Assembly: GCA_030867685.1 (NCBI GenBank)
Contig: JAQOWU010000007.1
Span: 2,294,001-2,358,000, forward strand
Direction: 5' to 3'
Origin: Wickerhamiella versatilis
Lineage: Eukaryota
DNA length: 64,000 nucleotides
Below are positions 24,037-41,575 of the stretch, piece by piece (within the stretch, counting starts at the first letter, position 1; the number at the start of each line of letters is the position of its first letter). Made by a program: the position numbers and the translations under genes. Under the pieces are notes generated by a model. The model was given only the letters and a program-made list of their open reading frames with translations. It had not been told where the DNA came from and ran no database searches.

Positions 24037-24178
24037 CTCATATCAGTGACCTCTCTATAAGTCCTGAAAGAAGTATATATCTTTATTATATAATATTCAA
24101 TCGGTCTTCGACAGTATAGTAATCTTTGTAAATAGAAATAAATAAAAAATATAAGTTTCTCTAAATAGTGCCCAGAGC

Positions 24179-26011
24179 TCAAATGAAGCTGGGACTAAGT
24201 CCCTGCTTCTCGACCAGGGCATTCCAATCTATATATCTTTCACCCATCTGATCATTCTTCCAGATCTCTCTCACAAGCTCTTGTACTTCCTTCAAGTTGT
24301 GTTGATCAATTCTGGCTAAAAGACTGTCGAACATTTCCATAACTTTTAGCCTATTTCCAGCATCAGCACAGCAAATACCTGCAATAAATAAAGGAAAAGT
24401 AAGAATCCCTTCCACTCGAGTTTCGATGCTATGTAAAATTGCATCAATTAGCTGCATATCCATAATACTCATCTTGAGCGATGATGAGTTGATTTGCAGA
24501 ACCGCTTTCTGAATATGCAGGAGAACAACCAGCTTGAATAGCTCGAACAAATCTATTTGTACCTTTGATTCATGATCATCCAGCGCTTTAAGCAGCTCCT
24601 GATTTGGACGAGCAGCACGCGCGTGGTCCTCAAGTATCTGAGCACGTTGGAAAGTCGATTCGAATGAGGACCTATCAGTCCGAGGGATGCCTCTCACCTC
24701 AAGTGCTATAGCATTCACCTTAGACAAAATCACGAATAAGGGCTCACAGCATGCCAAAACAGAGTCTGGCATGTTAATAGACATTGGCAAAGAAAATATG
24801 AACTCAAATTCAAGTGGCGAGAATAAAGACGGTGTCTGTGTTGACGAAGCAGTGAGAATCTCCTTATATGCGAAGTTCTTGAGAAGCCACCGGATGCTAT
24901 CGCATTCAATAAAGCTCATGATGCCACCATTTATCTGAATAACTTGTGCCGCCCATAATTGATATTGGCGCCAATCGCCAATGATTCCCGAATGAATTCG
25001 AACGGTAGCCAGAATCAAAATCGTGGCTAGAACTTCCTCTTTGGCCATTGTATTGCGTTCTTCCTTCTTTATCAACTGTGCGGCCTCTTCCGAATACATT
25101 TTAAGGTTATCATTCAGCTTGAGGTGCCAACTTGCCCAAGCCAATATGGCGTAAAGTACGGCACGGCATTTCAAACTGAGCGCGAGATACACAGAGCGAA
25201 AATAATTCAGGGGAGACGTTGACAAAACTAAACTCTGCTTATCGCGGAAATATTCAAAAAGCGCGATTGCATCATCACTCAGGTCAGGATAGTTGGCTTT
25301 AAGCATGACAGTTGATGGCGCAGGAGTAACGGTTTTACCAACTTTTGCATCAAAAATAAGACTTGATTTAAACGCGCCACGCTGAGGAAGACGGACAAAC
25401 TGCTGCGAATCTTGATTTGCATCACTCTCTCCAGAAATTACCGGTGAATCCGCTGGCGCTGGCAGGAAGAGGTGCGAGTCCTCGACTTTTGGGGAATCAA
25501 AGCCTTCCGCAGACACAAAAGCCACATCAATCACAGGAGAGGAAGTACTATTTGATTCGCTAAGTTCAGTGCTTTGAGCCGTGAACTGACGGTCCAGGTC
25601 TAAGAGGTAAGGGGCTTCAAGATCCAAAGGCGGAGGGGGGAGAGACCAGAGTATCGAGCTATCACTTGACGAAGCATCAATGTTATTCCGTGTGAAATGA
25701 AGAGGGAACAACAGTTGCTCGCCAGACGGAATTGAACTGCTAGCAGTTGGAGTCGAGTGATTCTGGGGCTTGGAAAGGGCGGAAAACGTATCATCATCTA
25801 TTGTGTACTTACTCTTTCTTGTTCTTGGCCGATTGTGTTCAGGATTAGGATATTGACAGTCAAATTTTAGCTTCTTACATGCGACACAAATTGGACGGGC
25901 CTCATCACAGCGCTTTTTTCTTCGACGACAAGTGAGACAGCCAGTTCGCGATCTTGAATATTTATGTTGACCCTCAATATTGGGTACAACATCTTTTTTC
26001 TCAGCTGGCAT
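24179..26011 (-). CDS. Zn(II)2Cys6 transcription factor with fungal-specific C-terminal TF domain
   Basis: RSRTGCLTCRRRKKRCDEARPICVACKKLKFDCQYP; FPLFIAG near the C-terminus. Confidence 0.93.
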   Translation of the reverse strand: MPAEKKDVVPNIEGQHKYSRSRTGCLTCRRRKKRCDEARPICVACKKLKFDCQYPNPEHNRPRTRKSKYTIDDDTFSALSKPQNHSTPTASSSIPSGEQLLFPLHFTRNNIDASSSDSSILWSLPPPPLDLEAPYLLDLDRQFTAQSTELSESNSTSSPVIDVAFVSAEGFDSPKVEDSHLFLPAPADSPVISGESDANQDSQQFVRLPQRGAFKSSLIFDAKVGKTVTPAPSTVMLKANYPDLSDDAIALFEYFRDKQSLVLSTSPLNYFRSVYLALSLKCRAVLYAILAWASWHLKLNDNLKMYSEEAAQLIKKEERNTMAKEEVLATILILATVRIHSGIIGDWRQYQLWAAQVIQINGGIMSFIECDSIRWLLKNFAYKEILTASSTQTPSLFSPLEFEFIFSLPMSINMPDSVLACCEPLFVILSKVNAIALEVRGIPRTDRSSFESTFQRAQILEDHARAARPNQELLKALDDHESKVQIDLFELFKLVVLLHIQKAVLQINSSSLKMSIMDMQLIDAILHSIETRVEGILTFPLFIAGICCADAGNRLKVMEMFDSLLARIDQHNLKEVQELVREIWKNDQMGERYIDWNALVEKQGLSPSFI

Positions 26012-26278
26012 ACCTGCCTTCCACGTCCCACACGACGTTCACCTGCGATGCTTCTGTAGATTAGACAACCTGTTATTAATCGAACAAATGGGTACGATTG
26101 CAAAGGCTGTTGGCTTCGTCTCCTAAAAAATCTTCCAGGGGATTTTTACATTGATCTACAGTGCTATTTATTGTAAATCATTCTATCTTACAAAATAATG
26201 TTAGGCAACGGTTTGGCAGTGAGAAAAGTTTAAACCCACAAGTTCAGCTTATCCCCACAGCCTTATAACCTGTCATGC

Positions 26279-27784
26279 CTAGCATCTTTGCTGCGCTTCA
26301 AGAATATTAAGGTCCATATGATTTCTCATGTAGCGTTCACTGGCCGCAAAAAAGGGCTGGTGATCCCAGGGTGTATATCTGCCCTTACGAAGAGCTTCAT
26401 ATACAAAGATTCGACGAGCTTGACTCTCGCGAACCTCGGTGTCAAACTTTTTAAGATCCCAACGAGCCCGTACTCGTTCTATGAAGTCCTGTACAATATC
26501 CGCGTAATCAGAATCTTTCGCGAGATTCCGGAATTCATAAGGATCGGTCTCTATATTAAACAGCTGCGGAGGGTCATTGTCACACCAGTTGAATTTGTAT
26601 GGTCCATCGCAAATTGTCACCAGCGGAGCTACAGTTCCTTCTGCCGCATACTCCATATATACAGGTCCATGGTGACTTTCTTTTTTTATCAGCGGCAAAA
26701 GCGACACTCCATCACCAGATAGGAATTCATCGTCAATATTATCGATTCCCACTAGCTCAGAAAGAGTATTGGCAATGTCGACGGTGGACACTGCTTCGTT
26801 TATGGTTTCAGCCTTTTGTCCAGGGATTTGAATTGCGAGAGGCACCCGGGAGGAGCCTTCGCGAGGACTCATTTTGAACCAGAGGCCATGATCTCCGAGC
26901 ATGTCACCGTGGTCGGAAAGGAACAATATAATTGTGTTATCTCGCATTCCAGTGCGTTCAAGAATTTTAAGCAATCCACCAAACTTATCGTCAATGTAAG
27001 AGATATTGCCAAAATATGCGCGACGAGAACGTCGAATGTTCTCGTCGGAGATGTTGAAAGCCTTGTAGTCATTGGCGTCGAGCAGACGCTTAGAATGCGG
27101 GTCCTGCTGGTCATAGGGAACGGCTGGTGCATTAGGCATTAACGCAGGACAGTTTTCATATAGATCCCAGTATTCCTGTCGTGTGACGTAGGGATCGTGG
27201 GGGTGAGTGAAACTTACCGTCATACACCAAGGCCGCGGGTCCTTTCCACGGGCAAAGTCACGAAGTTTCTGTTCCGCGACGAAAGCAACTTCATCATCAT
27301 ATTCAAGCTGGTTACTGGTCTCTGCCACACCTGCTCCAGTGACCGATCCCATGTTGTGGTACCACCAGTCCACCCGCTCATTAGGTTTGCGATAGTCGGG
27401 TGTCCAGCCGAAATCAGAGGGATAAACATCAGTAGTCAGGCGCTCCTCGAATCCGTGAAGCTGATCTGGACCTACAAAATGCATTTTCCCTGAGAGAACG
27501 GTATTATATCCATTTCGACGCAGCTGATGAGCGAATGAAGGCATACTAGCCGCTAATTCCGCGGCATTGTCATAAACACCGCTACTTGACGGAAGCCTTC
27601 CTGTCATTAGGGACGCCCGTGCAGGACCGCAGAGTGGACTGCTAGTATAGCAATGCGAGAAGTTAACTGCGGAGTTATACCAGGACCGAAGGTGTGGCAC
27701 ATGAAGAAAGTCTGCGGGACCATTCTCAAACAGTGTGCCGTTCACCTGATCCGCCATGACAATCAATACATTGGGCCGTGACAT
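26279..27784 (-). CDS. betC: Choline sulfatase, proteobacterial type
   Basis: SSPLCGPARAS (CxPxR), GKMHFVGPDQLHGFEERLTTD, GWTPDYRKPNERVDWWYHNMGSVTGAGVAE, SFTHPHDPY, ERYMRNHMDL; collinear with rhizobial BetC as I recall it. Confidence 0.93.
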   Translation of the reverse strand: MSRPNVLIVMADQVNGTLFENGPADFLHVPHLRSWYNSAVNFSHCYTSSPLCGPARASLMTGRLPSSSGVYDNAAELAASMPSFAHQLRRNGYNTVLSGKMHFVGPDQLHGFEERLTTDVYPSDFGWTPDYRKPNERVDWWYHNMGSVTGAGVAETSNQLEYDDEVAFVAEQKLRDFARGKDPRPWCMTVSFTHPHDPYVTRQEYWDLYENCPALMPNAPAVPYDQQDPHSKRLLDANDYKAFNISDENIRRSRRAYFGNISYIDDKFGGLLKILERTGMRDNTIILFLSDHGDMLGDHGLWFKMSPREGSSRVPLAIQIPGQKAETINEAVSTVDIANTLSELVGIDNIDDEFLSGDGVSLLPLIKKESHHGPVYMEYAAEGTVAPLVTICDGPYKFNWCDNDPPQLFNIETDPYEFRNLAKDSDYADIVQDFIERVRARWDLKKFDTEVRESQARRIFVYEALRKGRYTPWDHQPFFAASERYMRNHMDLNILEAQQRC

Positions 27785-27794
27785 CGTGATTGAT

Positions 27795-27800
27795 CCTCCT
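27795..27800 (-). promoter_or_regulatory. Shine-Dalgarno-like AGGAGG 10 nt upstream of the betC ATG (probably vestigial)
   Basis: Minus strand reads ccAGGAGGatcaatcacgATG. Confidence 0.55.
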
Positions 27801-27877
27801 GGAGCAAGGTTATCTTTGGTAGAGTTTATATCAATACCTCGGCGAGACCGATCGGTATTGGGACCGAATTGCGTTGT

Positions 27878-27887
27878 CTCACGTGAG
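27878..27887. promoter_or_regulatory. Palindromic E-box CTCACGTGAG (Cbf1-type site) upstream of betC
   Basis: TCACGTGA core about 95 nt upstream of the ATG; minus-strand TATAAA at 27825-27830. Confidence 0.5.
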
Positions 27888-28629
27888 CAACCTTACGAGA
27901 TCTATATATTAGCGCAGAACTGTATATCACTTTACAGGACGAATCGGACCGTGAAATGTTGTTTCTCAGTTAGCTTCTAATCATTTTAACGTGCCATTCC
28001 AAAAAAAAATATTGCAACCTCAGTGCTACCGCGTAGGTTGTGTTAAACTAATTAGAGATTACTAATAGTGATTTGGCTGGTTCCTAAGATTCTTCCTATC
28101 TACTGGTTCGACTTCCGACAGCTTTTCCGAAGAAAAGTCTACGAGGTTGTGCTTGCCGGTTTGTATACCTGCTTTGCACAGGGTATGGCCTTTCAATCGT
28201 ATATACGGGTAATTTTTTTTTCCATACTGTTCGTAAGTGATAGGGATCTGGGCTACCATCATTTTAAGGTTACAAGATTATCTGTCAGGTGATTATCATC
28301 GGACTGCTTCAAATTGACGAGAACCACGTAACTCTTGCGATTATGAATTTGTCCACATGGCTTTGCCCCTCTGTCTCCCTCACGTCACCTATCTGACCGT
28401 TGGTGACCTTCTGCTTTATCACTTATCAATCATTATTATTCAGGTTTTTTTGTTAAGTAGTCTGAAGTGGCCAGAACTTTCATATGAATATAGAAGTCCC
28501 TAATTCAAGTGTATTTGGGTGAACTTCGCGATTCCAATCGGCAAGGCGACTAGAAGTTCGGCGCTTCAGCTGGCTTGTATAGCCACCTTCAAGTTGAACA
28601 CAGTAAAATATATAACTAGAATAAAAACA

Positions 28630-29127
28630 CTACTTGGCAATTACATCCACAGCCTTATCCACGTTGCCGCGAATTGCATTTGAGTAGGGGCATGTCTGGT
28701 CGGCCTCAGCCACTAGATCCTCGGCCTCCTTTTGGCCAAGACCCTCAATAGTAACCTTCATGTCAACGGCGATATTGAATTGACCAGGCTGTTTAGGTAC
28801 TAGGGATACAACGTTTGTGACTTCCACTGCCTTCTCAGGTAGTCGAAGCTTGCGTTTCTGATTAGCCGTAAACAAGATGGCGTTTTCGAAACAGGCAGCA
28901 TAACCACCTGCAAATAGCTGCTCTGGGTTGGTGGCACCACCCTTGCCGCCCATAGATTTGGGGATTGCGAGCTTGATATCTAGAAGACCATCGTCGCTCT
29001 TGATGGTACCATGACGTCCCCCAACTGCCGAAGCGCTTGTGGTAAACAAAGGCGAGGCTTTCGCTGCATAGCCTCTGAGTCCAATTCTACCGAAGTTCAA
29101 TGCTGGGGTAATAGCTTTGCGAAGCAT
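28630..29127 (-). CDS. ohr: Organic hydroperoxide resistance protein Ohr with N-terminal mitochondrial-type presequence
   Basis: GGRHG, ATNPEQLFAGGYAACF and CPYSNA motifs. The first ATG at 29127 gives the leader MLRKAITPALNFGRIGLRGYAAK; the track start at 29310 is TTG. Confidence 0.92.
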   Translation of the reverse strand: MLRKAITPALNFGRIGLRGYAAKASPLFTTSASAVGGRHGTIKSDDGLLDIKLAIPKSMGGKGGATNPEQLFAGGYAACFENAILFTANQKRKLRLPEKAVEVTNVVSLVPKQPGQFNIAVDMKVTIEGLGQKEAEDLVAEADQTCPYSNAIRGNVDKAVDVIAK

Positions 29128-29473
29128 TATGCTAAATATTGAAGCCGGGGAGCTCGCTATAAATCCTATACACCTAACCCTGATAGGGCCGTTCCAGCAC
29201 AGCAGCAAGTAAGCGATAGATTCTAGACTGCTGAGCAGTCTGTCAGCAGAAACTTGGGTCTGGGCTCGACGCTTTGAAATAAGCCTAATCTTAAATAATA
29301 TGACTTCCAAAAACGTTGCTACACAGAGAATTTAATTCTGAGGTCAATGTGTCCTCGGCACCCCTCGACTTATTTATCGTCGAAATCTGAAACTTAACGC
29401 GTTGTACGTCTCTTAGCTAATAGATCTATTCTGGTGAGTGGGATCTATAGATCTGTATTGAAAAAGCCTAAGC

Positions 29474-31000
29474 ATGCCTGCCTTTTCCCTTCGGCTTCGC
29501 AGGCTCATTCACCTCTTCATTCTTTTATGTTCGATATATATAGTTGCTCAGGCAGGGTTCAGCTGGACATTCAGTGCCAGTGGACAGAAAGGCTGGCTTC
29601 AGGAGCTCAAGAGTGGAGAGCCAAATAAAGGGTCATCTTACAATGCCGAAGGGATCAAAAATGGATATCGCCATCGACCGGGGCCAGAAAATGTCATGTA
29701 CGGTCTGAAGACCGGGGCCAATATACTTTGGAATGAAATTCCTCTTCATGCAGCTACCACGTTCAAGAAATGGCCTCAGCATAAGGCATACGCCGAAATT
29801 GGTGAATTATTTGGTGATGAACCCATTTTCGATCTTTTTGAACGTGTTCCCGAACATGTCATTAACGATGACGCGCTTGAAAAATATCGGACTCTGAAAG
29901 ATGAGATTGCGCGCCATGATGAATGGGAGTACAATATGGTCGCAGATTATGATGGGTGGTCAATTGACCGTTTCAAAAATGTGCCTATGGCAGCTCATAT
30001 GTGGGAGCATGCGACCCCAGAAACAGAATGGTTCATCATAGCTGACGGTGATTCGTATTTTCTTCAGGATAATACTTTGAACTTTCTCCAGAATTATGAT
30101 CCGAAGGAGCCTTGGCTTCTCGGCAGCCCTGCTTTTGCCGGTGGTGCATTTACCCCTGAGGGCGAGGAGACAGGAATCTGGTTTCCCCACGGTGGTAGTG
30201 GCGTTATCACGAGCCGGGAGGCTCTGAATAGATTATTCGCAGGAGGTGTTCAGCCCGTAATTGATACCTATACAGAACGTGCGATATATCACTGCTGTGG
30301 TGATGCTATTTATGCAATCGCTCTTTTCGAGATAGCCAATGTCTCACTGAGCACACCTGAAGAAACCCAATCCGATTATGCCGATTTTTTCCAGGGTCAC
30401 GGTTTTGCTGATTTTGGCATCGTTGATGGATCCTGGTGTTATCCCGTTCTTTCGTTTCACCATACTAGTCCACGGGAGTTAGAACGTCTATACGAATACG
30501 AAGCTCGCCGATCTGGAACTGTGACACAAAGTCAATTCTATGAGGAGTTCTGGCTTCCATATATGGTACCAGAGCGTCAGTGGTGGGACGCATTTGAAGC
30601 AGTGGTTAATGATCCGTGGCTTTACCAGTTCACGCCGGATTCCATTTTGGAGAGCGAGGAGCTAATGGATTTGATGGCTACAGGATCTGTGCCATTTGAA
30701 TCTAAATCTGCTTGCCGTAGTATGTGTGAGAATATAGAAGATTGTATGGTCTGGAGATGGAAAAAAGGACTGTGTACCGTCTCCCATAGCGGCCTCCTGG
30801 TGCGCGGCAGAGGAGTTAGGGAGGGTCGTAAGAACTGGAATGACGAGGAAATGTGGTCCGGGTGGATGGTGGAACGTATCCGGGAGCGAAGAACGAGAGC
30901 AAATTGTGATCCTAAGGCCGTCAACCAAAACCAGCTCGTCGAAGGTTGGGGATGGTCGAAACCTTCACATCCAGCTACCACCATAAAGCGAAGGCAATAA
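29474..31000 (+). CDS. Glycosyltransferase family 31-like type II membrane protein (fungal)
   Basis: N-terminal signal anchor; LKTGA, GWSIDRFKNVPM, WFIIADGDSY, FPHGGSG, CCGD, SFHH motifs. Confidence 0.8.
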   Translation: MPAFSLRLRRLIHLFILLCSIYIVAQAGFSWTFSASGQKGWLQELKSGEPNKGSSYNAEGIKNGYRHRPGPENVMYGLKTGANILWNEIPLHAATTFKKWPQHKAYAEIGELFGDEPIFDLFERVPEHVINDDALEKYRTLKDEIARHDEWEYNMVADYDGWSIDRFKNVPMAAHMWEHATPETEWFIIADGDSYFLQDNTLNFLQNYDPKEPWLLGSPAFAGGAFTPEGEETGIWFPHGGSGVITSREALNRLFAGGVQPVIDTYTERAIYHCCGDAIYAIALFEIANVSLSTPEETQSDYADFFQGHGFADFGIVDGSWCYPVLSFHHTSPRELERLYEYEARRSGTVTQSQFYEEFWLPYMVPERQWWDAFEAVVNDPWLYQFTPDSILESEELMDLMATGSVPFESKSACRSMCENIEDCMVWRWKKGLCTVSHSGLLVRGRGVREGRKNWNDEEMWSGWMVERIRERRTRANCDPKAVNQNQLVEGWGWSKPSHPATTIKRRQ

Positions 31001-31110
31001 AAAAAACTATATGTTAATTAGAGTATTTATATTCAAGTTGTATATTATTAAATCAGTCAAAAAGCATATCTATAAAACCAAGTCAGTATTGCGGTGGCCG
31101 CCGCCTTGAA

Positions 31111-31971
31111 TTATATGGCACGCTTCCTGCTTTCCTGGATGTACGCCTGTCTCAACCTTAGCGTTACAGGGCCCGGCTGGCCATTTGCGATTTCTACATC
31201 ATCGATTACAACGACTGGAGTCACGAATGTGGTTGCGGACGTTGCAAAGCACTCCAATGCATTCTGGGCCTCAGCAACCGTAAAGGATTTTTCTTGGACA
31301 TCCAGTGAAAGTTCCTCCGCGATCTTGTACACCACTGCACGTGTTACTCCTGGCAAGATTGAATGCGATAGTTCCCGTGTAATAAGTTTGTGATCACGGG
31401 TAAGGATCCAGACATTATTTGATGCACCTTCAGTCACTTTACCATCCTCAACCATCCATGCGTCAGCTGCCCCGGAGGCTTTAGCAGTCATTTTGGCCAT
31501 CACAGGATATAGCAATTGAACCGTTTTGATATCTCGCCGTGCCCATCGCAGGTCTGGGAGGGTCACTACACTAATTCCCTTGGAAGCTGATGGATTTTCA
31601 ACCAACAATTTCGCCTGAGTGAATACCACGAGAGTGGGGGGAGTGCCAGCTGAGTATTGAAAGTTCCTATCACCCTCATTCCCACGTGTGAGTTGAAGAT
31701 ATACTGCTCCCTCAGTTATTCCGTTTATATGGATAAGCTCGCGATATAGTTTCAGAAGTTCCTGCTCACTGAGCGGTAGCTTTATACCCACCTCGTTTGC
31801 TGATCTTCGCAAGCGCCTTGTGTGTCCTTCGAAGTCTACCAGCTTCGATTCAAGCACACAAGTCATTTCGTAAATTCCATCTGCAAAGAGGAATCCGCGA
31901 TCAAAAATAGATACTTTTGCATCTTCCTCCGCAACATAGATTCCATTCAGGTACACAGTGCGATGACTCAT
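31111..31971 (-). CDS. dat: D-amino-acid transaminase (PLP fold type IV), bacterial type
   Basis: VSIFDRGFLFADGIYE, DLRWARRDIKTVQLL (catalytic Lys), VTEGASNN, ILPGVTR. Confidence 0.88.
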   Translation of the reverse strand: MSHRTVYLNGIYVAEEDAKVSIFDRGFLFADGIYEMTCVLESKLVDFEGHTRRLRRSANEVGIKLPLSEQELLKLYRELIHINGITEGAVYLQLTRGNEGDRNFQYSAGTPPTLVVFTQAKLLVENPSASKGISVVTLPDLRWARRDIKTVQLLYPVMAKMTAKASGAADAWMVEDGKVTEGASNNVWILTRDHKLITRELSHSILPGVTRAVVYKIAEELSLDVQEKSFTVAEAQNALECFATSATTFVTPVVVIDDVEIANGQPGPVTLRLRQAYIQESRKRAI

Positions 31972-32057
31972 GTATTCTTCTCACGTGGAGATAGCGTTTA
32001 TTAGTCTACTGATTAGCAATTTAAGACAATCTACAACCTGCTGGAGCTTTGAGAAGA

Positions 32058-32858
32058 CTATTCATCCACACATAGGGCTAATGTTGCACTTAGTCCCATA
32101 AGTAAGGCGCCTGCTGAAGCCGCAACTCCAGAAAAAGAAAACATCAGCCCCATCTGAATGCCGGACCACATGCAAAGAGGAATTTCGATCGTGGCACCAA
32201 CAATAAACATATAAGAGGCCCATTTAGCAGTAGAAACAGGTAAGGTCAAGGATAATGCAATTAATGGCATGCATATGGCTACCTGGAATGGCCGTAGTGA
32301 CGAGAGAATAGAGACAGGAAGAACGGCAGTAGGAAGAACAAGAGGCAACAGAAACAAGGTACAAAAAAATGTTAATAGTGTAGATGCGAATACAGAATTG
32401 ACCTTCCTTGCGCTAGTGACTAACTGTATGATGGGAATGACGGTGCGCATGTTATCAAGCATTGCCAAAGAAAACGTTGAAAACGCAATAATTGCCACAG
32501 TGTAGCTTTGTATACCACTGTCGAGAATCTTATCGTAATCACCACTTTCCCTTAGTTCAAATCGTAGATTGAAAGATGTAAAGAGGACGGCCACTAAAAT
32601 CAATACGACGTTGACAAGGCACAATGACACAGCTCTTTTCAGCGAAAAATATCCAGAAGGGCGGATAAACCTTTGATAAATAAATGGTGCTATACAGGGA
32701 GCCAGCATGACGAGTTTATGTTCTGTGACAAAATTCGTTGCTTCCGGCACGACAGATGAAAAAACTGCGCAAGAGAGAGGACCAAAAAATTCATATGCAG
32801 TGAACTGAGATTTACTGATACTCACAGACTTCTGATTTCTTTTCGGATTCGACGCCAT
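32058..32858 (-). CDS. Hypothetical multi-pass membrane protein
   Basis: 266-aa ATG-started ORF with about 7-8 hydrophobic segments; no family recognised. Confidence 0.55.
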   Translation of the reverse strand: MASNPKRNQKSVSISKSQFTAYEFFGPLSCAVFSSVVPEATNFVTEHKLVMLAPCIAPFIYQRFIRPSGYFSLKRAVSLCLVNVVLILVAVLFTSFNLRFELRESGDYDKILDSGIQSYTVAIIAFSTFSLAMLDNMRTVIPIIQLVTSARKVNSVFASTLLTFFCTLFLLPLVLPTAVLPVSILSSLRPFQVAICMPLIALSLTLPVSTAKWASYMFIVGATIEIPLCMWSGIQMGLMFSFSGVAASAGALLMGLSATLALCVDE

Positions 32859-32967
32859 TCTGCCTCCTTCAATTCGACTTTGACGTTCGGGGGTTTAGTC
32901 ATACGCTGAAGTGGATCCTTAAGTGCCAACAACTCTCAGCTCTTCGCAATTTTATCCTTCTTATAGA

Positions 32968-33627
32968 ATGCCTTCATTGAGCAGAAATATTCCTGTTGAC
33001 AAGACATGTACCACTGTCTTGTATATTGACTGTCAAAACTTCAATTGTCACCGTAACGGTGGTGAGTATAAAAGTATGTCTTCAGAAGAGCAAGAGCGTA
33101 GATTCAAGTTCTTCTTTGACAAAATCGATTCCGAAACTATCCCGAACCTAGTAGATCTTCAAAATGCTTCTCGAAATAACGGTCTAGAGGTGATGTATAC
33201 TGTTATCGAAAGCCTCACAAAAGATGGTAGGGATAGGAGCTTAGATTATAAGATTACTGGATTTAATGTACCACGAGGATCTTGGGATGGCAAAGTAATC
33301 GATGCCCTTAAGCCACTTGATGATGAGATTGTTCTGCCAAAAACATCCTCCAGCGTTTTCATCTCCACACACATAGACTACGTTCTCCGTAATCTCGGCA
33401 CTCGATATCTAGTAATATGTGGATTCCTTACCGACCAGTGTGTGGAGAGTACAGTACGAGATGCATGCGACCTTGGATACTATGTTACGGTGATTACGGA
33501 TAGCTGTGCCACGCTCACTCAAGAACGTCATGAACGATCCCTCTCAGCTGTGAAGGGCTACTGCCGGCAAATTACCACACGTGAATTTATTAAGGAGCTT
33601 AGCGCCCAGAGTGACACCAATAAGTAG
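32968..33627 (+). CDS. Isochorismatase-family cysteine hydrolase, bacterial type
   Basis: IDCQN, ESLTKDGRDRSLDYKITG, LPKTSSSVF, TDQCVESTVRDACDLGY (Asp-Lys-Cys triad). First ATG at 32968; the track start at 32923 is GTG. Confidence 0.9.
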   Translation: MPSLSRNIPVDKTCTTVLYIDCQNFNCHRNGGEYKSMSSEEQERRFKFFFDKIDSETIPNLVDLQNASRNNGLEVMYTVIESLTKDGRDRSLDYKITGFNVPRGSWDGKVIDALKPLDDEIVLPKTSSSVFISTHIDYVLRNLGTRYLVICGFLTDQCVESTVRDACDLGYYVTVITDSCATLTQERHERSLSAVKGYCRQITTREFIKELSAQSDTNK

Positions 33628-33726
33628 AATTTAATTCAAATTTTCTCGCAATATCAGTAAATAAATGCCCAAAACCGTGTCTTATCTAAGCAAACAATAA
33701 GCTATCAGCATCGATTAGGATGCCAT

Positions 33727-35043
33727 ATGGGCCAAGAAACTAAATCAGGTGATTCACAACTACTAGTAGTCTCCGTGGTTGACTGTGCTGGTGTAACTAG
33801 GGGTAAGTGCGTCCCTAACTCGAGAATTCGATCCGCAGCTCAGTGTGGTTTAGGTGCCTCGACTTCGTGGGCCTTATTCACTGTTGTGAATGATCTGGCT
33901 TGGATTCCATCTGTGAATGTTGTTGGCGACGACAGGATTTTTCCGGATCTATCCAGTAGCGTTAAACTAGATCGCGGACTGGTCTGGGCACCAGCTGAGA
34001 TATGGCAGCAAAATGGCGAGCGAGCCTTCTGGTGTACGAGGACCTTTCTGAAACAGCAAGTGGAGACTTTGGCGGCAGCTGGAATAAGTGCTAAAGTAGG
34101 ATGTGAAATTGAGTTTACTCTGATACCAAATCAGAGTCCTCTTCCTCAAACAAGGTGGCATTCATATGGCATAAGCAGTCTACTAGACCAGGAAGATTTT
34201 GTACGCAATGTATGTGAGGAGTTCCATCGTATAAATTTAGGGCTTGAGCAATTTCATGCGGAGTTTGGCTACCTCCAGTACGAGATTTCCATGACAGCTT
34301 CAGATCCCATCAGTGCCATAGACAAGTTAACTCTGGCAAAATTCTTACTAGGCCGGATTGCGCGTCGCCACAACTGCGTTATATCTTTTTCACCACGACC
34401 ATTTGCCAATGATGCTAGTAATGGAGCTCATACTCATGTATCATTTTACCGAAATGGAACTCCTTTGCTCTCAGGCCACGAGGGCCAGTATGGAATAAGC
34501 AGGGAGGGTGCTGCCATTATAGGTGGCATAACTCACTTTCTTCCGGAACTAATAGGTCTTTTGACACCATCTATACTTTCTGTGGCGCGTCTTAATGGCA
34601 GTTGGTCTGGCTCGTATTCTTGCTGGGGCATTGAGAACCGAGAAGCGGCAGTGCGGTTCTGTCCGAACAGTGCTGAAGGAGGAGATAATGCTAATATTGA
34701 AGTTAAATGTATTGATGCCTCTGCAAACCCGTATGTCACCTGCGCAACAATCCTAATAATGGCCATTGAAGGTATTGAACGAATGCTTTCTTTGCCGAAA
34801 GAAATAAGTGTGCATCCCGATTCGTTATCTGAAAAAGACCGAAAAAAATGGGGAGTTGAGCGGCTTGCAACAGACCACATTGAAATGCTGGATAAGTTAG
34901 AGAACAGTGAACTAGCGCGCCGTACTATCCAACCACAGCTACTGGATTCTCTGATTGCCGTTAGAAGATATGAGAACAAGGTACTTAAAGAGCGCCCGCT
35001 AGAGGAAGTAGTGGAAACTCTGCGCTTCGCCTGGTCTACGTGA
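33727..35043 (+). CDS. Glutamine-synthetase-like gamma-glutamyl-amine/polyamine ligase, GlnA3 type
   Basis: GCEIEF, EQFHAEFGYLQYEIS, NGAHTHVS, CWGIENREAAVRF, NIEVKCIDASANPY. GLGAS..W, VVGD.R and the C-terminal RFAWST match actinobacterial GlnA3 as I recall it, not yeast GLN1 (GSII). Confidence 0.85.
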   Translation: MGQETKSGDSQLLVVSVVDCAGVTRGKCVPNSRIRSAAQCGLGASTSWALFTVVNDLAWIPSVNVVGDDRIFPDLSSSVKLDRGLVWAPAEIWQQNGERAFWCTRTFLKQQVETLAAAGISAKVGCEIEFTLIPNQSPLPQTRWHSYGISSLLDQEDFVRNVCEEFHRINLGLEQFHAEFGYLQYEISMTASDPISAIDKLTLAKFLLGRIARRHNCVISFSPRPFANDASNGAHTHVSFYRNGTPLLSGHEGQYGISREGAAIIGGITHFLPELIGLLTPSILSVARLNGSWSGSYSCWGIENREAAVRFCPNSAEGGDNANIEVKCIDASANPYVTCATILIMAIEGIERMLSLPKEISVHPDSLSEKDRKKWGVERLATDHIEMLDKLENSELARRTIQPQLLDSLIAVRRYENKVLKERPLEEVVETLRFAWST

Positions 35044-35210
35044 GTGAATACTGCTAAGTACTGCTGCATATATATATCACGGAGGGCTATTATATCATAA
35101 TTTTTGCAGTAAATAGAGATTGAATGTCTATTCATCTAAATTACGGTTGATAGCCTACCAAACTTAGAGCATTAATGTGCAATAACACTGTCAAAGATAC
35201 CTATAATCGA

Positions 35211-36065
35211 CTATCTATCTATCCACCGCTTGCGATGGTGAGATGATACAGACGATACGGATGCAAGTTGAGGCAGGACTTTACTTGGTCTATATCCAGA
35301 TGGTGTTGTTTCAAGTGTCGGCTGCCAGTTTATTGTTTGGAATTGTGTTGATACAGGGCTTGGTGTTACTGTTGTCACCGGCATGTATTTATACTGTATG
35401 TTAGATTTGAAGGGCGTCCATGAAGATGTCGGATATCTTCGTGTCGGTACACCCTTGGCGGTTACTTTTGTTCCTGGTGTTGATTGGAAAGGTGCTGTGC
35501 GAGTAGGTCCCTTCTGCCAAGTATAAGGCATCAGATACCCTGCTGTGGTATCCAGCCTCAAAGATGATAAAGACAATGGCAGACTATATGTTGACCAGCT
35601 AACCGTGGGCTGAACACCTTGAACAAAAGAATCTGGGATGCCACCCTCAATGGCAGCCCCTGTTCCTGTCATTCCTTTCACGCTGAAGAAGCCCATGTAA
35701 TAATCAACAACCTGCATTTCTGGCTGATACTCCTTATCTTTTCCTGTCAATTGCACTGTATATTTGCCATCGCCTGCCAAGGCCAATGCTTTCGTAAAAT
35801 TCATTGTGTGGCTCGCCTTCCCTCTAATATCAACTTGCTGCTCGAGGTAGTCACACTTAAACCCCACCCCATCTATGGTCGTACACAACAGGAAGTCACC
35901 CAGGATCAGCCTGTCTGGCTCTGGATCTCCTGCCTTCCAGACCCACTGGACTGTGATTTGGTCAGTGGCCGCATCAAATCCTTTGTTGGCATCCAGAACA
36001 CCAACACTATAATCCGCCAATGCTTGCCCAGCTAAGAGCAACCCCCCAAACAAGTCCCTGCGCAT
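35211..36065 (-). CDS. KRE9: Kre9/Knh1-family beta-1,6-glucan synthesis protein
   Basis: Signal peptide; PYTWQKGPTRTAPFQSTPGTKVTA..TRRYPTSS; basic C-terminal RKRW. Confidence 0.8.
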   Translation of the reverse strand: MRRDLFGGLLLAGQALADYSVGVLDANKGFDAATDQITVQWVWKAGDPEPDRLILGDFLLCTTIDGVGFKCDYLEQQVDIRGKASHTMNFTKALALAGDGKYTVQLTGKDKEYQPEMQVVDYYMGFFSVKGMTGTGAAIEGGIPDSFVQGVQPTVSWSTYSLPLSLSSLRLDTTAGYLMPYTWQKGPTRTAPFQSTPGTKVTAKGVPTRRYPTSSWTPFKSNIQYKYMPVTTVTPSPVSTQFQTINWQPTLETTPSGYRPSKVLPQLASVSSVSSHHRKRWIDR

Positions 36066-37634
36066 ACTCTGTTAAGGAAATTTGATGAGATAAAAAAAAC
36101 AAGGATCAAAGTAAAGGATGAGCAACACATATGCACAATGCATGACCTAGCGCATGTTTCATAACTCTAAAAAGTAAACACAACTGCTTTGATAGATCAG
36201 TTGCAGGAATATCAGGCCATCTTAATCAATAAAGATAAATTTAACGGTTTTAGAAATGTACAATATCTTGGTGGGCTTCTATGTAGTGTATACAAACAAA
36301 GGGATGGCAGCGATAGCGTGATGATTCGTTACCTAGATTGTCATCGGTGCCTGTTTTACACAAATGAAAGGATTTTTCATCTGAATTTTGACCCCTGATG
36401 TTGAAACTACGCAGTATGAGTAAGTTAAATTCTGTCTTTAGCAGATGGATTCTACCCCACTGTCAGCATTGGGATATCTTGTAAAAGGCACATAATAAGC
36501 AAGCCAAGCACGTTCTCTGAGCTATTTTACTGATTACTTTGATGAAAAGCCTAACGGGTTTATAGCAATAAAAGCCCCATGCTAAATATAGTAGGACACC
36601 CCTGACGACTTTTAGACATACGCTCTCCTTCAGTCTCCTTGAACTTATGTCTAAAATCGGTTCCCAAGCCAATTAGTTGCTATTTGTTATCCATGCCGGA
36701 TCCCCTATGACTTACCTGGTCCTGGTAGATGTAATCATTGACAGGGGTAAACGCATAATTGTTTTAAACATGAGTAATGAGCAGGCCTCCCCTGTATGCA
36801 ATCTCTGATTGCAGAAATAAACGGCTTGTTGACATCTTGGCTACGACTCCAATCATTTACCTCCATATCTTGTAAAAGAGTATTGATATTCTCGTTGATT
36901 TTAGCATGATATTCAAGGGCTTCATTGGACTTAAGACTTAAAGACAGTTTCACTTATCCAGCAAGTAATTATCCTATAATTAACACTAAAGTCTTCAATT
37001 CTCCAGTAGAAACCTACATGTATGAGTCAAGTTAAAAACCATGAAAACAGGAACCTATCCCAATTACGTAAAAGTGCAATTGATATTATTAATGAGCCAT
37101 TTTATGAACGGGCGATAGTCCGTGGTTTCCAGGGTATTTTCTTTTTTTTTGTATTTAACGAGAACTAAAACTCAACTGGCTATCTACGAGCCTTACACTG
37201 TACCGAAGAAAGATACCCGCCAGTAGAAAATATTCTCTCAGCAACATACGCTCTCTGATTGCATGTCACATAATTCCCGATGTGGAAAACCGATTTTACT
37301 TACTCTTCAGTTCGGTTGCTCGTTTGAATGCTGGTGATTTGGGTGAAATAGTAGTTCCATTCCCTCAAATTGGTATTATAGATTCACACACTGATCGAGT
37401 TTGTTATGTTATATTATGTTATGTTGTGAATATGGTCAGTTTAGGGATATTGCAATATAGATCCAGGCTTTCTTGGCCATTTGATATTGGTCCGCATAGC
37501 TCACAGATGGCATCACGCCCGACGGGTTTAAATGCACTGAACTTGCTGATGCTTATAAATTGTGTTTGTTCGCCGCGGGAGGTGGGAAGTGGGAGGTTTA
37601 TCTGTAGATAATTTTTAATCGTAATCCTAAAGAA

Positions 37635-38807
37635 ATGACTTCATTGGATATCGTGATTGCTGGTGCAGGAATTGGAGGGCTCGCTACGGCTATTGCACTC
37701 CAACAGAAGGGTCATAAGGTTCGCCTTTTTGACCGAGTTCAGGAGCTTAGACCTGCAGGATCTGCGATCAGTGTGTGGAGCAATGGTGTGATTGTCCTGG
37801 ATGCGTTGGGACTGGGAAAGGCTATGGATGAAGCCAGTGGTAATATGGAGGCCATGAGTTACCATGATAAAGATGGTAAACTGCTGACCAGATTCAGCCT
37901 TAAACCGCTATATGAATCTGTGGGTAGGGCAGCGAAACCCATAGCTCGCACTGAACTTCAACGCGTGCTTCTTGAAGGTGTGGGCGGCAAAGTTCAACTA
38001 GGCAAGCGTTGTGTGGGCTACAACAAAAAAAAGGAAGGGGGCGTTGAAGTCCTTTTTGATGATGGAGACAAGGTTGAGGCGGACTTGCTGGTGGGCGCTG
38101 ATGGGACGCACTCCGTCCTGCGAAGTCAGGTAGCTGGGCGTAAGGTCGATCGCCGGTATAGTGGATATGTAAACTGGAATGGTCGTGTGAAAGCCACCGA
38201 GAAACTGGCCCCCTCTGCCGACTGGACTCAATTTGTAGGCGACGCGAAACGAGTATCTATGATGCCCATGGGCAATGGGCTTTTCTACTTTTTCTTCGAC
38301 GTTCCTCTTCCAGCAGGTACGGAAAGCGATCCTGCGAAATACAAAGAGGAGCTCTCTGGCTATTTCAAGGGCTGGGCAGAACCTGTACAAGAGCTGCTTC
38401 GCGAAATGGACCCCTCTACGATAGCACGCGTCGAAATCCATGATATCGATCCTCTGGACAACTTGGTTGATACGGGTGTCGCACTAATTGGCGATGCTGC
38501 TCATGCCATGTCCCCAGATCTGGGACAGGGAGGTGTACAAGCTATTGAGGATGGTTGGGTCTTGGCAAAGTGCATAGAAGCTCATCCAGGAGACCTTAAT
38601 GCTGCCCTTAAAGCCTACAATGATTCTCGTGTTGAGCGTGTAGCATCAATAATTACGCGTGCCCGCAAGCGCAGCGAGACTACACACGGTAAGGACATGA
38701 AGGAAACTGAAGAGTGGTATGAGGAGCTTTCTCATGAGAATGGTGACAATATAATGGGTGGCATGCGTAAGACGATACTTGGTGGTCCTATCAAGGCAAA
38801 TCCTTAG
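37635..38807 (+). CDS. hpxO: FAD-dependent urate hydroxylase, bacterial type
   Basis: GAGIGGL, AISVWSNG, RRYSGYVNWNG, FYFFFDVPLPAG, VEIHDIDP, GDAAHAMSPDLGQGG, THGKDMKETEEWYEEL; collinear with Klebsiella HpxO as I recall it. Confidence 0.9.
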   Translation: MTSLDIVIAGAGIGGLATAIALQQKGHKVRLFDRVQELRPAGSAISVWSNGVIVLDALGLGKAMDEASGNMEAMSYHDKDGKLLTRFSLKPLYESVGRAAKPIARTELQRVLLEGVGGKVQLGKRCVGYNKKKEGGVEVLFDDGDKVEADLLVGADGTHSVLRSQVAGRKVDRRYSGYVNWNGRVKATEKLAPSADWTQFVGDAKRVSMMPMGNGLFYFFFDVPLPAGTESDPAKYKEELSGYFKGWAEPVQELLREMDPSTIARVEIHDIDPLDNLVDTGVALIGDAAHAMSPDLGQGGVQAIEDGWVLAKCIEAHPGDLNAALKAYNDSRVERVASIITRARKRSETTHGKDMKETEEWYEELSHENGDNIMGGMRKTILGGPIKANP

Positions 38808-39663
38808 AAGTCGTTTTGTATGGCCATATCAGACAAGCACTAAGTATCGATGACTGCGTTTGCGCAATAGGTTCGTTCAGTAAACCAATACATCCATATT
38901 CTAAACTTGGGACGATAGTAATAATGTGCTTTAGAAATCATAAATGTTTGTCTGAAAACTTATGCCACAAAGTACACTACACAATAGAGCCTTAAGCTAT
39001 CTCGAAGTAACTGGAAAAACGTTTTCACCTATATACACCTTTGCTTTTTTGAAGTCGCGATATCGAATTAGGCTAACTAGGTAGTGCCCATGCACAAAGT
39101 GCTTTTAGCCAACATGCTATTACTATTCTTGATTTTCTTTGGCTAGTCGTGTTAAAAAGGGTCTTGGCTCAGGTACAAGAGGCGCAGCTCCCTTTTCAGT
39201 GAGATATCTCTACTCGTTCTTACTGTTCAAGGTTTAAACAACAGTATGGGTGTTTTAATTGCGTAGTACTGTTAGTAGTAAGAGGACCAGGAGGGTTGAT
39301 ATGAGATGGATCCATTCTTTGTTCTTGTGTTTAAAAAACAGTGTCAAACGTTTTGTCAATTTTTTTACTTACTCGCAAATCTTTGGTATGCGATTTACGA
39401 AAGCACGTTAGAGAGGCAGATGTTATACTTAAGTGCGACTTTTTGAAACAGCAATAACCCCCGGAATAGCATACTTCTAATACGCCCGATCCTTTATTTT
39501 ACTCCTTAATTAAGGTGCAGCCTGAATATATCTTCTACTAAATTTTTTTTGCCGCGCATCCGCGCTTATTTCTACCCGATATAAGGGTTTGGGTTAATGT
39601 GCGCTTTACGAGTAATCTCCGGATTTTATACATAATCATCAAAAATTCACACTTCAGTTGATA

Positions 39664-41064
39664 ATGCATTTATGGGATCAAAAACGAGAAACCAAAATTT
39701 TCGAGCATTTTAAAGGATCTTTCCCTTTTGTAAAGGAATGGGGGAATCATACGGATATTGATGGTGCCAACATCACGATAACTCCCAGTCGACCTGTCGA
39801 GCATGATAGTGATAGCGATAAGGAGTCCCAGTACGAAGACATTCCTGAGAAAAACTTCGAGGAAAGTCCACCGCCTGATGGAGGACTAGTAGCGTGGCTT
39901 CAAGTAGCTGCTTGTTGGATTCTTAATACGAATAGCTGGGGTATTTTGAATATGTTCGGTGTATACCAAGAATATTACCAGACTTCCTTCTTGTCTCATA
40001 AGTCACCAGGAGATATATCTTGGATAGGTGCTCTTTCTCAATGCTGTTGTTTATTCGGAACTGTGATATTTGCATTTCCAATGGACGCAGGATATATGAA
40101 GTCTCTGGCAATTGCTGGAACTTTATTACAGTTTTTAGCATTGATGCTTCTAGGAAGTCTCTGTAGAAGCTACTGGTCTATTATGCTTGTACAAGGCGCA
40201 TTCATTGGGCTGAACTGCAGCATATTTTACATTGTTAGTCTTGGGTGCGTGGCTCCATACTTCTCCAAGAAACGTCCTTTAGCAATGAGTCTGGGTACAT
40301 GCGGTGCTGCTTTAGGCGCTGTTATATACTCGTGCATGGCTCGCAGACTAATAAATTCAGTTGGGTTTACTTGGGCTACTCGAGCCACCGCCTTTGTGCA
40401 ACTTGGATCGTGCTTATTTATGTGTGCAGTTATAAGGCAGCGGCTTAGTCCTCGACGAAGAACGGGAATTATAGCTTTTGAATGTTTCACGGAGCCTAAA
40501 TTCATGTTATTTTCATGTGCGAATTTTTTTGCTTTCTCTGGGCTTTTTACCTTTTATTTCCATTTCGAATCTTTTGCCCTTTTCGAGCATCCACAAGAGA
40601 AATATCTAGAGTACACCACAGCGATAGTCAATTCAGGATCGGTTGTGGGGCGTGTTGTTTTTGGCATAATTGCCAGCTACTACGGTAATGCTAACGTACT
40701 TGCCATCACATTAATCTGTTCGGCTATCATTGGATGGTGCTGGATACCAGTCAAATCAGAAGGGTCTATTATTGCTGTAGGATTGTTATTTGGATGTGCC
40801 ACAGGTGCTACATGCAGTCTGCCAGGACCGATGGTTGCTTACCTGACAAGTGATTTCAGCCGCTTGGGTATTCGCATGGCTGTTTTGTTTATATTTGAAG
40901 GAACTGGAATATTATTAGGACCACCATTTGCAGGTATAATGGAAAGAAACCATGGCTGGTTCTGGCCGGAGCTTTATTGTGGCATGCTGATGACTGCTGG
41001 TGCTGTGTTATTTTTCTGTTGTCGACAATTTATAACTCACAATAAATTGCGAGTTATAATATAA
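39664..41064 (+). CDS. MFS monocarboxylate-porter family transporter (Mch-like)
   Basis: PPDGGLVAWLQV, FGVYQEYY, ISWIG, YFSKKRPLAMS; about 12 TM segments. First ATG at 39664. Confidence 0.9.
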   Translation: MHLWDQKRETKIFEHFKGSFPFVKEWGNHTDIDGANITITPSRPVEHDSDSDKESQYEDIPEKNFEESPPPDGGLVAWLQVAACWILNTNSWGILNMFGVYQEYYQTSFLSHKSPGDISWIGALSQCCCLFGTVIFAFPMDAGYMKSLAIAGTLLQFLALMLLGSLCRSYWSIMLVQGAFIGLNCSIFYIVSLGCVAPYFSKKRPLAMSLGTCGAALGAVIYSCMARRLINSVGFTWATRATAFVQLGSCLFMCAVIRQRLSPRRRTGIIAFECFTEPKFMLFSCANFFAFSGLFTFYFHFESFALFEHPQEKYLEYTTAIVNSGSVVGRVVFGIIASYYGNANVLAITLICSAIIGWCWIPVKSEGSIIAVGLLFGCATGATCSLPGPMVAYLTSDFSRLGIRMAVLFIFEGTGILLGPPFAGIMERNHGWFWPELYCGMLMTAGAVLFFCCRQFITHNKLRVII

Positions 41065-41575
41065 ATTATAGCCTGATGTGTTGAAGACATTTTTGCTATC
41101 GATGATCGAGTAAAAATCGAGTAAAAAGCAGACAGTGGCACACAGAGTTCGCGTTACTGCAATAATCTAAGTCAACAACCTGGCAACGAATAAAATTTAG
41201 CATCAGTGCGATATCTTCCTATAGATTGCACAATAATTGTACGTATTAAGCCTTCATGGCAGCATTAATACTATGCCAACATAACTATTTATTCGAACAC
41301 TGGGACTGAAGATGCGAGTGGCGTTTAAAGGTAACATCGCAATATAGCGTAATTCAGGAAAACAAGCCTCTATTTTTCACATACCTTAAAGTAAATACAT
41401 ATTTGACCACTTGGAAATTCTACTGTAGCCTTTTGCTTAGCTTTCGGTGTTGAGCGCGGTATATTTTGACAGTGAATTAATACTGAGCTTTTTGCCAACA
41501 TTTTCCCTTTTTCAAAGAATAGACACTCAGTGGAAGTTACTGCGTGAGTATAAACAAATAATTATGGTATAAAAG

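Follow-up and report, generated by a model that had tools for sequence, protein, structure and literature searches.

A block of bacterial-type genes in a yeast chromosome

How did six genes of bacterial families come to lie among native fungal genes within 12.5 kb of a yeast chromosome, and does their crowding mark a special site of insertion? The block in question occupies positions 26279 to 38807 of a 64,000-nt stretch of contig JAQOWU010000007.1 (here, the window), for which the standard genetic code was used. It contains nine open reading frames (ORFs). Six belong to bacterial families and are intact, intronless, and transcribed; they alternate with a GT31 gene, a KRE9/KNH1-like gene, and ORF266, as follows.

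26279-27784, minus strand: betC, choline sulfatase of 501 amino acids (aa), intact; TIGR03417, 778.6 bits (cutoff, 433.45)
28630-29127, minus strand: ohr, Ohr-family peroxiredoxin; TIGR03561, 158.7 bits (cutoff, 88.85)
29474-31000, plus strand: native fungal GT31/Fringe-like glycosyltransferase; PF02434, E value of 5.7e-9
31111-31971, minus strand: dat, D-amino-acid transaminase (class IV); NF005209, 364.6 bits (cutoff, 320)
32058-32858, minus strand: ORF266, hydrophobic protein of 266 aa with multiple transmembrane (TM) segments; no family match
32968-33627, plus strand: isochorismatase-family hydrolase; PF00857, E value of 1e-31
33727-35043, plus strand: glutamine synthetase (GS)-like, i.e., GS-family, ligase; PF00120, E value of 5.9e-63
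35211-36065, minus strand: native KRE9/KNH1-like cell-wall gene; PF05390, E value of 1.9e-9
37635-38807, plus strand: hpxO, FAD-dependent urate hydroxylase; NF033623, 557 bits (cutoff, 500)

A preliminary description of the window had placed six bacterial-family genes in alternation with fungal GT31 and KRE9 genes in this interval; all of the ORFs are found where it put them, and the family scores agree. Curated NCBIfam cutoffs are exceeded by four block proteins (those of betC, ohr, dat, and hpxO). As judged from the families, betC likely serves to release sulfate and choline from choline-O-sulfate, hpxO likely acts in FAD-dependent urate oxidation, dat in D-amino-acid/2-oxoacid transamination, and ohr in lipoyl-dependent reduction of organic peroxides, while the isochorismatase-like and GS-like genes likely provide an amidohydrolase and a gamma-glutamyl-ligase step on an amine or amide. 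A nitrogen- and sulfur-scavenging theme, drawn from the family names, is plausible.

Our preferred answer, to which we assign a probability of about 85%, is that the block belongs to a Wickerhamiella versatilis-type chromosome arm in which several old bacterial genes, now domesticated, lie among native ones. It would have taken at least four acquisitions: (i) betC, (ii) dat, (iii) the isochorismatase-like and GS-like genes as a pair in one event, and (iv) hpxO, with ohr as a possible fifth. The assignment of probable donors that holds on sequence grounds is Halomonadaceae for dat and hpxO, another proteobacterial lineage for the pair, and, for betC, a source suggested by a Rhizobium-like best plasmid match. 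The acquired genes would now be ordinary yeast genes (intronless, transcribed, and with synonymous-site GC like that of their neighbors), and their neighborhood would reflect a domain-wide build-up of foreign genes in the long chromosome “End” domains. Repeated transfer from several donors, as first proposed, stands, in that the trees show more than one acquisition and at least two donor lineages.

Bacterial affinity of hpxO, dat, and betC

Trees were inferred with FastTree and midpoint rooting from the top 120 matches of each protein. The hpxO protein matches NF033623 over its full length (residues 5 to 385 against profile positions 1 to 381). Its closest matches are three relatives at 75 to 81% identity, followed by HpxO proteins of Halotalea, Pseudomonas, and Halomonadaceae at 59 to 65%. 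Among the organism-named rows of its top 120, all are bacterial except two chytrids (55%), and the log E-value ratio between the best named bacterium and the best named fungus is about 63. A yeast clade of four sequences (support, 1.0) lies within a seven-member clade that includes Halomonadaceae bacterium LMG 33818 and Halotalea (0.94), and the chytrid copies are placed elsewhere, apart from the yeast clade. According to the published W. versatilis gene table, a second hpxO copy, labeled as bacterial horizontal gene transfer (HGT), exists elsewhere in the genome (row 02842; PMC13376923); it may be one of the relatives at 75 to 76% identity.

For dat, a single relative at 71% identity is followed by Salinicola and Vreelandella proteins at 62 to 67%, and no fungal name occurs in the top 120. 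The protein falls within a clade of 24 sequences (support, 1.0), in which the organisms named are Salinicola and Vreelandella. It does not reach the TIGR01121 equivalog (233.2 bits versus 277.45) but reaches the subfamily model NF005209. In a scan of 400 Gammaproteobacteria, 11 genomes have a dat match at an E value of ≤1e-60, with 54% identity at best and none of the 62-to-67% type. The combined identities and trees support hpxO and dat as probable transfers from bacteria with Halomonadaceae affinity. If both trace to this family, some of the foreign genes of this salt-tolerant fermentation yeast may have come from halophilic bacteria sharing its niche.

The sequences closest to hpxO (81% identity), to the GS-like gene (60%), and to dat (71%) are probably on one contig of a sister organism. 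Their differing identities suggest unequal rates of change among neighboring genes.

The betC protein has a Choline_sulf_C domain (PF12411; E value, 4.6e-20) and, at C52, the Cys-x-Pro-x-Arg formylglycine motif, which is a mark of Cys-type sulfatases. Against the solved choline sulfatase 6fny, it scores 679.5 bits over residues 3 to 500, and a Rhizobium plasmid betC, the closest among plasmids, shows 63% full-length identity. Clusters 1 to 23 of the Atlas ranking are bacterial, and the first Ascomycota cluster (choline sulfatase) appears at rank 24. A bacterial-derived formylglycine-generating enzyme is listed in row 03986 of the published table, about 36 kb from betC (PMC13376923), which fits the intact motif. 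A transfer of betC from bacteria is thus supported by identity and the literature, more weakly than the probable transfers of hpxO, dat, and the GS-like gene. We also considered a joint transfer of betC and ohr as another pair and rejected it for the one Rhizobium plasmid inspected, on which no ohr gene lies within 8 kb of betC.

A conserved bacterial gene pair

We surveyed 160 loci (80 from genomes and 80 from metagenomes), fetched with a GS-like alignment, for the isochorismatase-like and GS-like genes; a scan of genome contigs with the single GS-like protein as query had found no relative, whereas the alignment-based scan succeeded. An isochorismatase-like match is present in 6 of the 160 loci (L001, Celerinatantimonas; L002, Parvibaculaceae; L003, Hyphomicrobiales; L004, a Pantoea plasmid; L101; and L102), at most about 2 kb from the GS-like gene. 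These six are exactly the loci with a GS-like identity of at least 48%, and the other 154 have no isochorismatase-like match. In L001 and L004, among the four genome loci, an FGase-family amidohydrolase gene and an RpiR regulator gene stand between the two, and an amino-acid permease gene follows.

The yeast isochorismatase-like protein is 67 to 70% identical to the products of bacterial genes that adjoin a GS-like gene. The GS-like protein has one relative at 60%, followed in its top 120 by Acidocella (52%), Pantoea (48%), and actinomycetes (40 to 46%), with no fungal and no Halomonadaceae name; its identity to proteins of Celerinatantimonas, Parvibaculaceae, Hyphomicrobiales, Acidocella, and Pantoea is 48 to 53%. 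It groups with Acidocella (0.99) and then Pantoea (1.0) in a proteobacterial clade. Yeast-bacterial identities of the isochorismatase-like and GS-like proteins (69% and 53%, respectively) compare with bacterial-bacterial identities of 70 to 74% and 54 to 57%. Because the two genes are linked in all six of the closest bacterial loci, they probably arrived together. Co-transfer in one event is the simplest reading, and these identities and the GS-like tree support both genes as putative transfers from bacteria. The six block genes do not amount to six transfers, given the conserved bacterial pair and the common Halomonadaceae affinity of dat and hpxO.

The earlier name “GlnA3-type” for the GS-like ligase does not hold. 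The protein scores below every NCBIfam equivalog cutoff, with 216.1 bits versus 650 for the gamma-glutamylputrescine synthetase equivalog NF045547; the closest bacterial homolog is likewise below that cutoff (226.6 bits), and no member of the bacterial cluster around the pair reaches an NCBIfam equivalog. No member of the bacterial module has been characterized, and the yeast copy could help to identify the substrate of the module.

Spacers of 87 and 110 bp separate ORF266 from its neighbors dat and the isochorismatase gene, and ORF266 has no match in Pfam, in NCBIfam, or by tblastn against plasmids. It was tried as a diverged FGase, the family whose gene stands between the pair in two bacterial loci; it was rejected on a BLASTP E value of 0.13 and its multiple TM segments.

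On Pantoea sp. plasmid pAPP145_4 (L089/L090, about 93.7 to 110 kb), the isochorismatase/FGase/RpiR/GS-like/permease cluster is found with a dat homolog (52% identical to that of the yeast) about 11.5 kb away. This plasmid, the short spacers (87 to 110 bp) between successive genes in the dat-to-GS-like interval, and the nesting of both dat and hpxO with Halomonadaceae would suit one large transfer, in which a single gammaproteobacterial fragment brought dat, the pair, and hpxO (perhaps also betC and ohr) and the native genes entered later. However, the best relatives of the pair belong to Celerinatantimonas, Parvibaculaceae, Hyphomicrobiales, Acidocella, and Pantoea, with Halomonadaceae missing from the GS-like top 120; dat is 62 to 67% identical to Halomonadaceae proteins versus 52 to 54% to those of pair-carrying genomes; betC is closest to Rhizobium among plasmids; and native GT31, ORF266, and KRE9 lie in between. 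Furthermore, the Wickerhamiella domercqiae sheet of the published data lacks K00824 (dat), and K01915 marks only the native glutamine synthetase there (PMC13376923). A metagenome scan added two loci of Pantoea-type layout, none above 49% GS identity, with neither dat nor the yeast-type orientation. Such a single large transfer is improbable, and several smaller acquisitions remain the preferred explanation.

Within that explanation, we tentatively propose a more specific account, at somewhat less than even odds: a two-gene catabolic module would have entered as one piece and been re-oriented from divergent to head-to-tail, as the second multigene bacterial cluster in this clade after the enterobactin operon, and dat and hpxO would have come from halophiles sharing the niche.

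Continuity, transcription, and age of the block

Bacterial genes in a eukaryotic assembly raise the suspicion of contamination or of a chimeric contig. DNA and RNA from four runs (X2, metagenomes X10 and X11, and RNA run X24) were mapped on positions 23000 to 41500. The 10-kb core is present in 20 of the 24 runs listed, which come from 13 studies and are labeled as isolates of one organism or as food-fermentation, sediment, surface, and food metagenomes. The whole mapped region is contained, with two base differences and two indels, in a single 44,489-base contig of an isolate; this contig may be from the source strain. From a 2018 fermentation metagenome (X10), a 4,371-base contig (29862 to 34232) takes in GT31, dat, ORF266, and the isochorismatase gene and reaches the start of the GS-like gene, and fermentation metagenome contigs link ohr with GT31 (27878 to 29820) and hpxO with the major facilitator superfamily (MFS) gene (38129 to 40481). 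A 2,858-base contig (35278 to 38129) from a surface metagenome of a diverged strain (X11) joins KRE9 and hpxO. Contigs of separate metagenomes thus bridge every class of bacterial/fungal junction, a second strain with fixed differences has the same layout in DNA and RNA, the stretch occurs in runs of 13 studies, and the synonymous-site GC resembles that of native genes. Contamination, which had already been called unlikely, and chimeric assembly are excluded by these data; the chance of either is negligible.

All six bacterial-type genes are transcribed (depth, 8 to 96). The RNA depth per mate class in run X24, which is from another strain, is 27 to 52 for betC, about 26 for ohr, 8 to 22 for dat, about 28 to 30 for the isochorismatase gene, 21 to 25 for the GS-like gene, and 54 to 96 for hpxO, with intergenic DNA at about 1 (range, near 0 to 3). 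No spliced joints are reported in this run over the mapped region, which agrees with the earlier description of the genes as intronless. In this seemingly unstranded library of another strain, hpxO, ohr, and ORF266 show pile-ups of read starts close to their start codons. ORF266 has the highest RNA depth of the block (about 78 per mate class). The KRE9/KNH1 gene is nearly silent (depth, about 0.5), while both of its bacterial-type neighbors are well expressed.

GC at third codon positions is 0.45 in seven bacterial-type genes versus 0.428 in 16 native genes (P = 0.22), while the synonymous-site GC of bacterial homologs ranges from 0.36 to 0.78. Because their synonymous-site GC does not differ from that of native genes, the bacterial-type genes are taken to be old residents. 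Strain differences were counted from 38 of the 40 listed (111 in all), namely, those that differ in the other strain. Among them, the synonymous/nonsynonymous counts are 10/0 for betC, 4/0 for hpxO, and 7/0 for GT31, compared with 3/3 for the GS-like gene, 1/1 for ohr, and 0/1 for the isochorismatase gene. These counts indicate purifying selection on betC and hpxO.

The block within a chromosome “End” domain

In W. versatilis, a soy-sauce yeast, foreign genes build up in chromosome “End” domains that are very long, enriched in AT, and weakly expressed and that have been proposed to favor the collection and retention of foreign genes (Brito et al. 2026; PMC13376923). Rows 05306 to 05332 of Supplementary Data 6 of that study follow the gene order of the window, with these annotations, labels, and, in places, expression in transcripts per million (TPM) (PMC13376923):

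05306 and 05307: two amino-acid permeases; Native
05308: ddl-like (the window ATP-grasp gene); HGT Bacteria/New function
05309 and 05310: two PDR transporters; Native
05311: UGA3-like factor; Native
05312: betC; HGT Bacteria/New function
05313: silent, unannotated; Native
05314: GT31; Native
05315: dat; HGT Bacteria/Replacement
05316: unannotated, about 90 TPM (ORF266); Native
05317: GS-like; HGT Bacteria/Reinforcement
05318: KNH1, about 3.6 TPM; Native
05319: hpxO; HGT Bacteria/New function
05320: MFS; Native
05321 and 05322: two histidine kinases; Native
05323: NCS1; Native
05324: 2OG, about 0.36 TPM; HGT Bacteria
05325 and 05326: hydantoinases; Native
05327: OPT; Native
05328: ARO80-like; Native
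05329: OsmC; Native
05330: AcnX (lhpI); Native
05331: acetyltransferase; Native
05332: M28 peptidase; Native

Supplementary Data 13 places rows 05312 to 05319 at 2,256,357 to 2,266,886 of scaffold02, within a 589-kb “End” domain (2,192,399 to 2,781,304) (PMC13376923). The GC of ORF266 (0.4232) is identical to that of row 05316. From this single exact GC match and the shared gene order, which bears out the initial attribution to Wickerhamiella/Starmerella-clade yeasts, we infer that the window is a chromosome stretch of W. versatilis or a very close relative; it is not claimed to be the same assembly as the published one. The published table has, at this locus, no isochorismatase (PTHR43540) or Ohr/OsmC row in the block (PMC13376923). 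The ohr and isochorismatase ORFs were either left uncalled or merged into neighboring models, and foreign-gene counts resting on that annotation may be slightly low, as both ORFs are transcribed yet have no row. The bacterial origin of most block genes and the regional build-up are largely known from that study, and the pair module and the two unlisted ORFs are modest additions.

Does the block stand out from this domain? The preliminary description regarded it as a landing zone for repeated transfers, which would here mean an insertion hot spot of 12.5 kb that caught bacterial DNA beyond its surroundings. Six of its nine ORFs are bacterial-type, and its density is far above the genome-wide bacterial rate, which we estimate at about 5% (about 266 genes, i.e., twice the 133 Pezizomycotina genes, in about 5,500 gene rows). 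The relevant background, however, is that of 80 “End”-domain rows around the block, with 17 labeled bacterial and 10 labeled Pezizomycotina (PMC13376923). When the 17 labels are shuffled over the 80 rows, at least 4 fall within some 8-row stretch in 86% of trials. With the ohr and isochorismatase genes added, at least 6 in 9 rows occur in only 14% of shuffles, the figure most favorable to a hot spot; the value becomes 35% if the pair is counted as one event. Rows 4000 to 4006, about 35 to 50 kb further on, are equally dense, with four bacterial genes and one Pezizomycotina gene in seven rows, and in the W. domercqiae sheet the HGT-labeled betC and hpxO genes have distant numbers (00020 and 04891) (PMC13376923). 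No tRNA gene is present in the window, no repeat of ≥25 bases in positions 23000 to 41500, and no gene relic recognizable by Pfam in the gaps of the block. Because the block is not denser than the “End”-domain background, its clustering is explained by the published domain-level enrichment rather than by a special site, and a local landing zone is unlikely. Striking runs of foreign genes are to be expected within “End” domains, and caution is advised since such a run alone is no sign of an insertion hot spot.

The origin of ohr and points against the preferred reading

The least certain member of the block is ohr. Its product carries a 24-residue N-terminal extension with five basic and zero acidic residues, which resembles a mitochondrial presequence. 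The best relatives are proteins of 141 to 143 aa at 49 to 54% identity (in an exhaustive search, 53% and 142 bits at most), the named ones from Neorhizobium/Phyllobacterium and Acinetobacter, and the tree places ohr with bacterial forms of this length in a 14-member clade (support, 0.92). Fungi own a large Ohr group with mitochondrial extensions (PMC5384416). On these sequences, ohr is a candidate for bacterial transfer that may instead belong to the fungal Ohr group. The bacterial origin first suggested for the block genes is borne out in the trees for hpxO, dat, and the GS-like gene, which fall within bacterial clades (0.94 to 1.0).

Several points weigh against an old, largely bacterial set of genes in a W. 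versatilis-type chromosome. (i) The trees are limited to the top 120 matches, FastTree, and midpoint rooting, and many rows are without an organism name, so that fungal sequences may be among them. (ii) The origin of betC was judged here from identity and cluster rank. (iii) For ohr, the best named bacterium scores 142 bits versus 114 for the best named fungus (a chytrid) and 104 for Coemansia; matches of 160 to 182 aa without an organism name score 123 to 126 bits; and an Atlas feature search places fungal Ohr clusters ahead. (iv) The pair is on opposite strands (divergent) in all six bacterial loci, whereas it is head-to-tail with a 100-bp spacer in the yeast. (v) The strain-difference counts are based on 40 of 111 differences. 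(vi) The match to the published table is imperfect: the remaining GC values of the table deviate from those of the window ORFs in the third decimal, and none is reproduced by an ORF of the window; midpoint spacings are off by up to about 1 kb, and rows 05306 to 05329 span 61.3 kb versus 53.6 kb in the window; no row corresponds to five of the window ORFs (MFS at 10102-11721, the deaminase, ohr, the isochorismatase gene, and the transcription factor at 47564-49360); and rows 05313, 05325, and 05326 have no clear window ORF (PMC13376923).

Some of these points would also fit ancient fungal families that were kept here and lost in most yeasts. The fungal Ohr group with its mitochondrial extensions (PMC5384416), the leading position of fungal Ohr clusters and the rank-24 Ascomycota choline sulfatase cluster in the Atlas searches, the presence of hpxO in chytrids, and the Native labels of AcnX and OsmC (PMC13376923) all lean this way. 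They are opposed by the placement of hpxO, dat, and the GS-like gene in bacterial clades, with chytrid hpxO apart from that of the yeasts, by identities to bacteria of 63 to 69%, by a conserved bacterial gene pair, and by top-120 lists for dat and the GS-like gene in which no fungus is named. Retention of old fungal genes is accordingly very improbable as an account of the block, though it may apply to ohr, AcnX, and osmC, and domesticated bacterial genes remain the favored one.

Surroundings of the block

The remainder of the window is yeast-like in content and includes genes for Zn2Cys6 transcription factors, tandem PDR ABC transporters, amino-acid permeases, hybrid histidine kinases, and an OPT transporter. 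Five outlying candidates for bacterial origin that had been named before are all present:

142-654, plus strand: DUF6314 ORF; PF19834, E value of 1.5e-9
11883-12968, minus strand: ATP-grasp, D-Ala-D-Ala-ligase-like; PF07478, E value of 6.1e-13, far under the ddl cutoffs
49854-50177, minus strand: broken 2OG-Fe(II) oxygenase, pseudogene fragments in two frames; PF03171
59770-60141, plus strand: OsmC-like gene; PF02566
60161-61906, minus strand: AcnX, cis-3-hydroxy-L-proline dehydratase; NF051439, 776.7 bits (cutoff, 700)

The two oxygenase fragments cover PF03171 profile positions 3 to 47 (window positions 50016 to 50177) and 52 to 93 (49854 to 50012). At 51094 to 52592 on the plus strand, part of an NCS1 cytosine/purine permease (199 aa; profile positions 45 to 226 of 440) abuts a 310-aa S-Me-THD/DUF917-like frame that is without the first half of its N-terminal domain. 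This junction suggests that a deletion joined two genes of a hydantoin-type utilization cluster, both of them truncated. Three ORFs have solid Pfam matches yet no row in the published table, i.e., a cytidine/dCMP-deaminase-like ORF (23359-24036, minus strand), an MFS ORF (10102-11721, minus strand), and a fungal transcription factor ORF (47564-49360, minus strand) (PMC13376923). Tandem pairs are formed by two 548-aa amino-acid permeases (5514 to 9599), two PDR ABC transporters (13685 to 23300), and two hybrid histidine kinases (41576 to 47265); three such pairs are typical of a duplication-prone chromosome arm.

Comparison with known systems

The block is a clean, well-supported case of bacterial genes domesticated in a eukaryote, and it adds little to the published record of the clade. 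In that record, an alien-index survey counted 211 genes of bacterial derivation in C. versatilis, more than in any other species that it examined (Goncalves et al. 2018; PMC5897096), many of the clade's bacterial-derived genes being common to several Wickerhamiella/Starmerella species, which points to old transfers. That study centers on fermentation genes, unlike this block, and the six block gene names are not found in eight of its supplement files (PMC5897096).

The closest counterpart is the set of W. versatilis “End” domains, where the gene order is the same and four of the six block genes, together with the ATP-grasp and 2OG genes, are labeled HGT Bacteria (PMC13376923). The difference lies in the GS-like gene, which that study treats as a single “Reinforcement” of glutamine synthetase and which is here half of a two-gene module; the label probably hides a different, two-enzyme function. 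Neither the two-gene module nor Halomonadaceae is mentioned in the abstract or sections 6, 7, and 9 of that paper, and its remaining supplements may bear on the matter (PMC13376923). Likewise, the window Ohr shares with the fungal mitochondrial Ohr proteins (Meireles et al. 2017; PMC5384416) an N-terminal extension of the predicted mitochondrial-targeting kind, but it differs from them in scoring best and grouping with bacterial forms of 141 to 143 aa.

A bacterial enterobactin operon has been transferred into yeasts of the Wickerhamiella/Starmerella clade (Kominek et al., bioRxiv 10.1101/399394; follow-up, PMC11043216). The pair in the window differs from that operon in comprising only two genes, which are divergent in bacteria and head-to-tail in the yeast, and its co-transfer is deduced from linkage in six of six loci. 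It would resemble the operon in that neighboring bacterial genes of a single pathway entered yeasts of the same clade jointly and are now expressed as eukaryotic genes (10.1101/399394).

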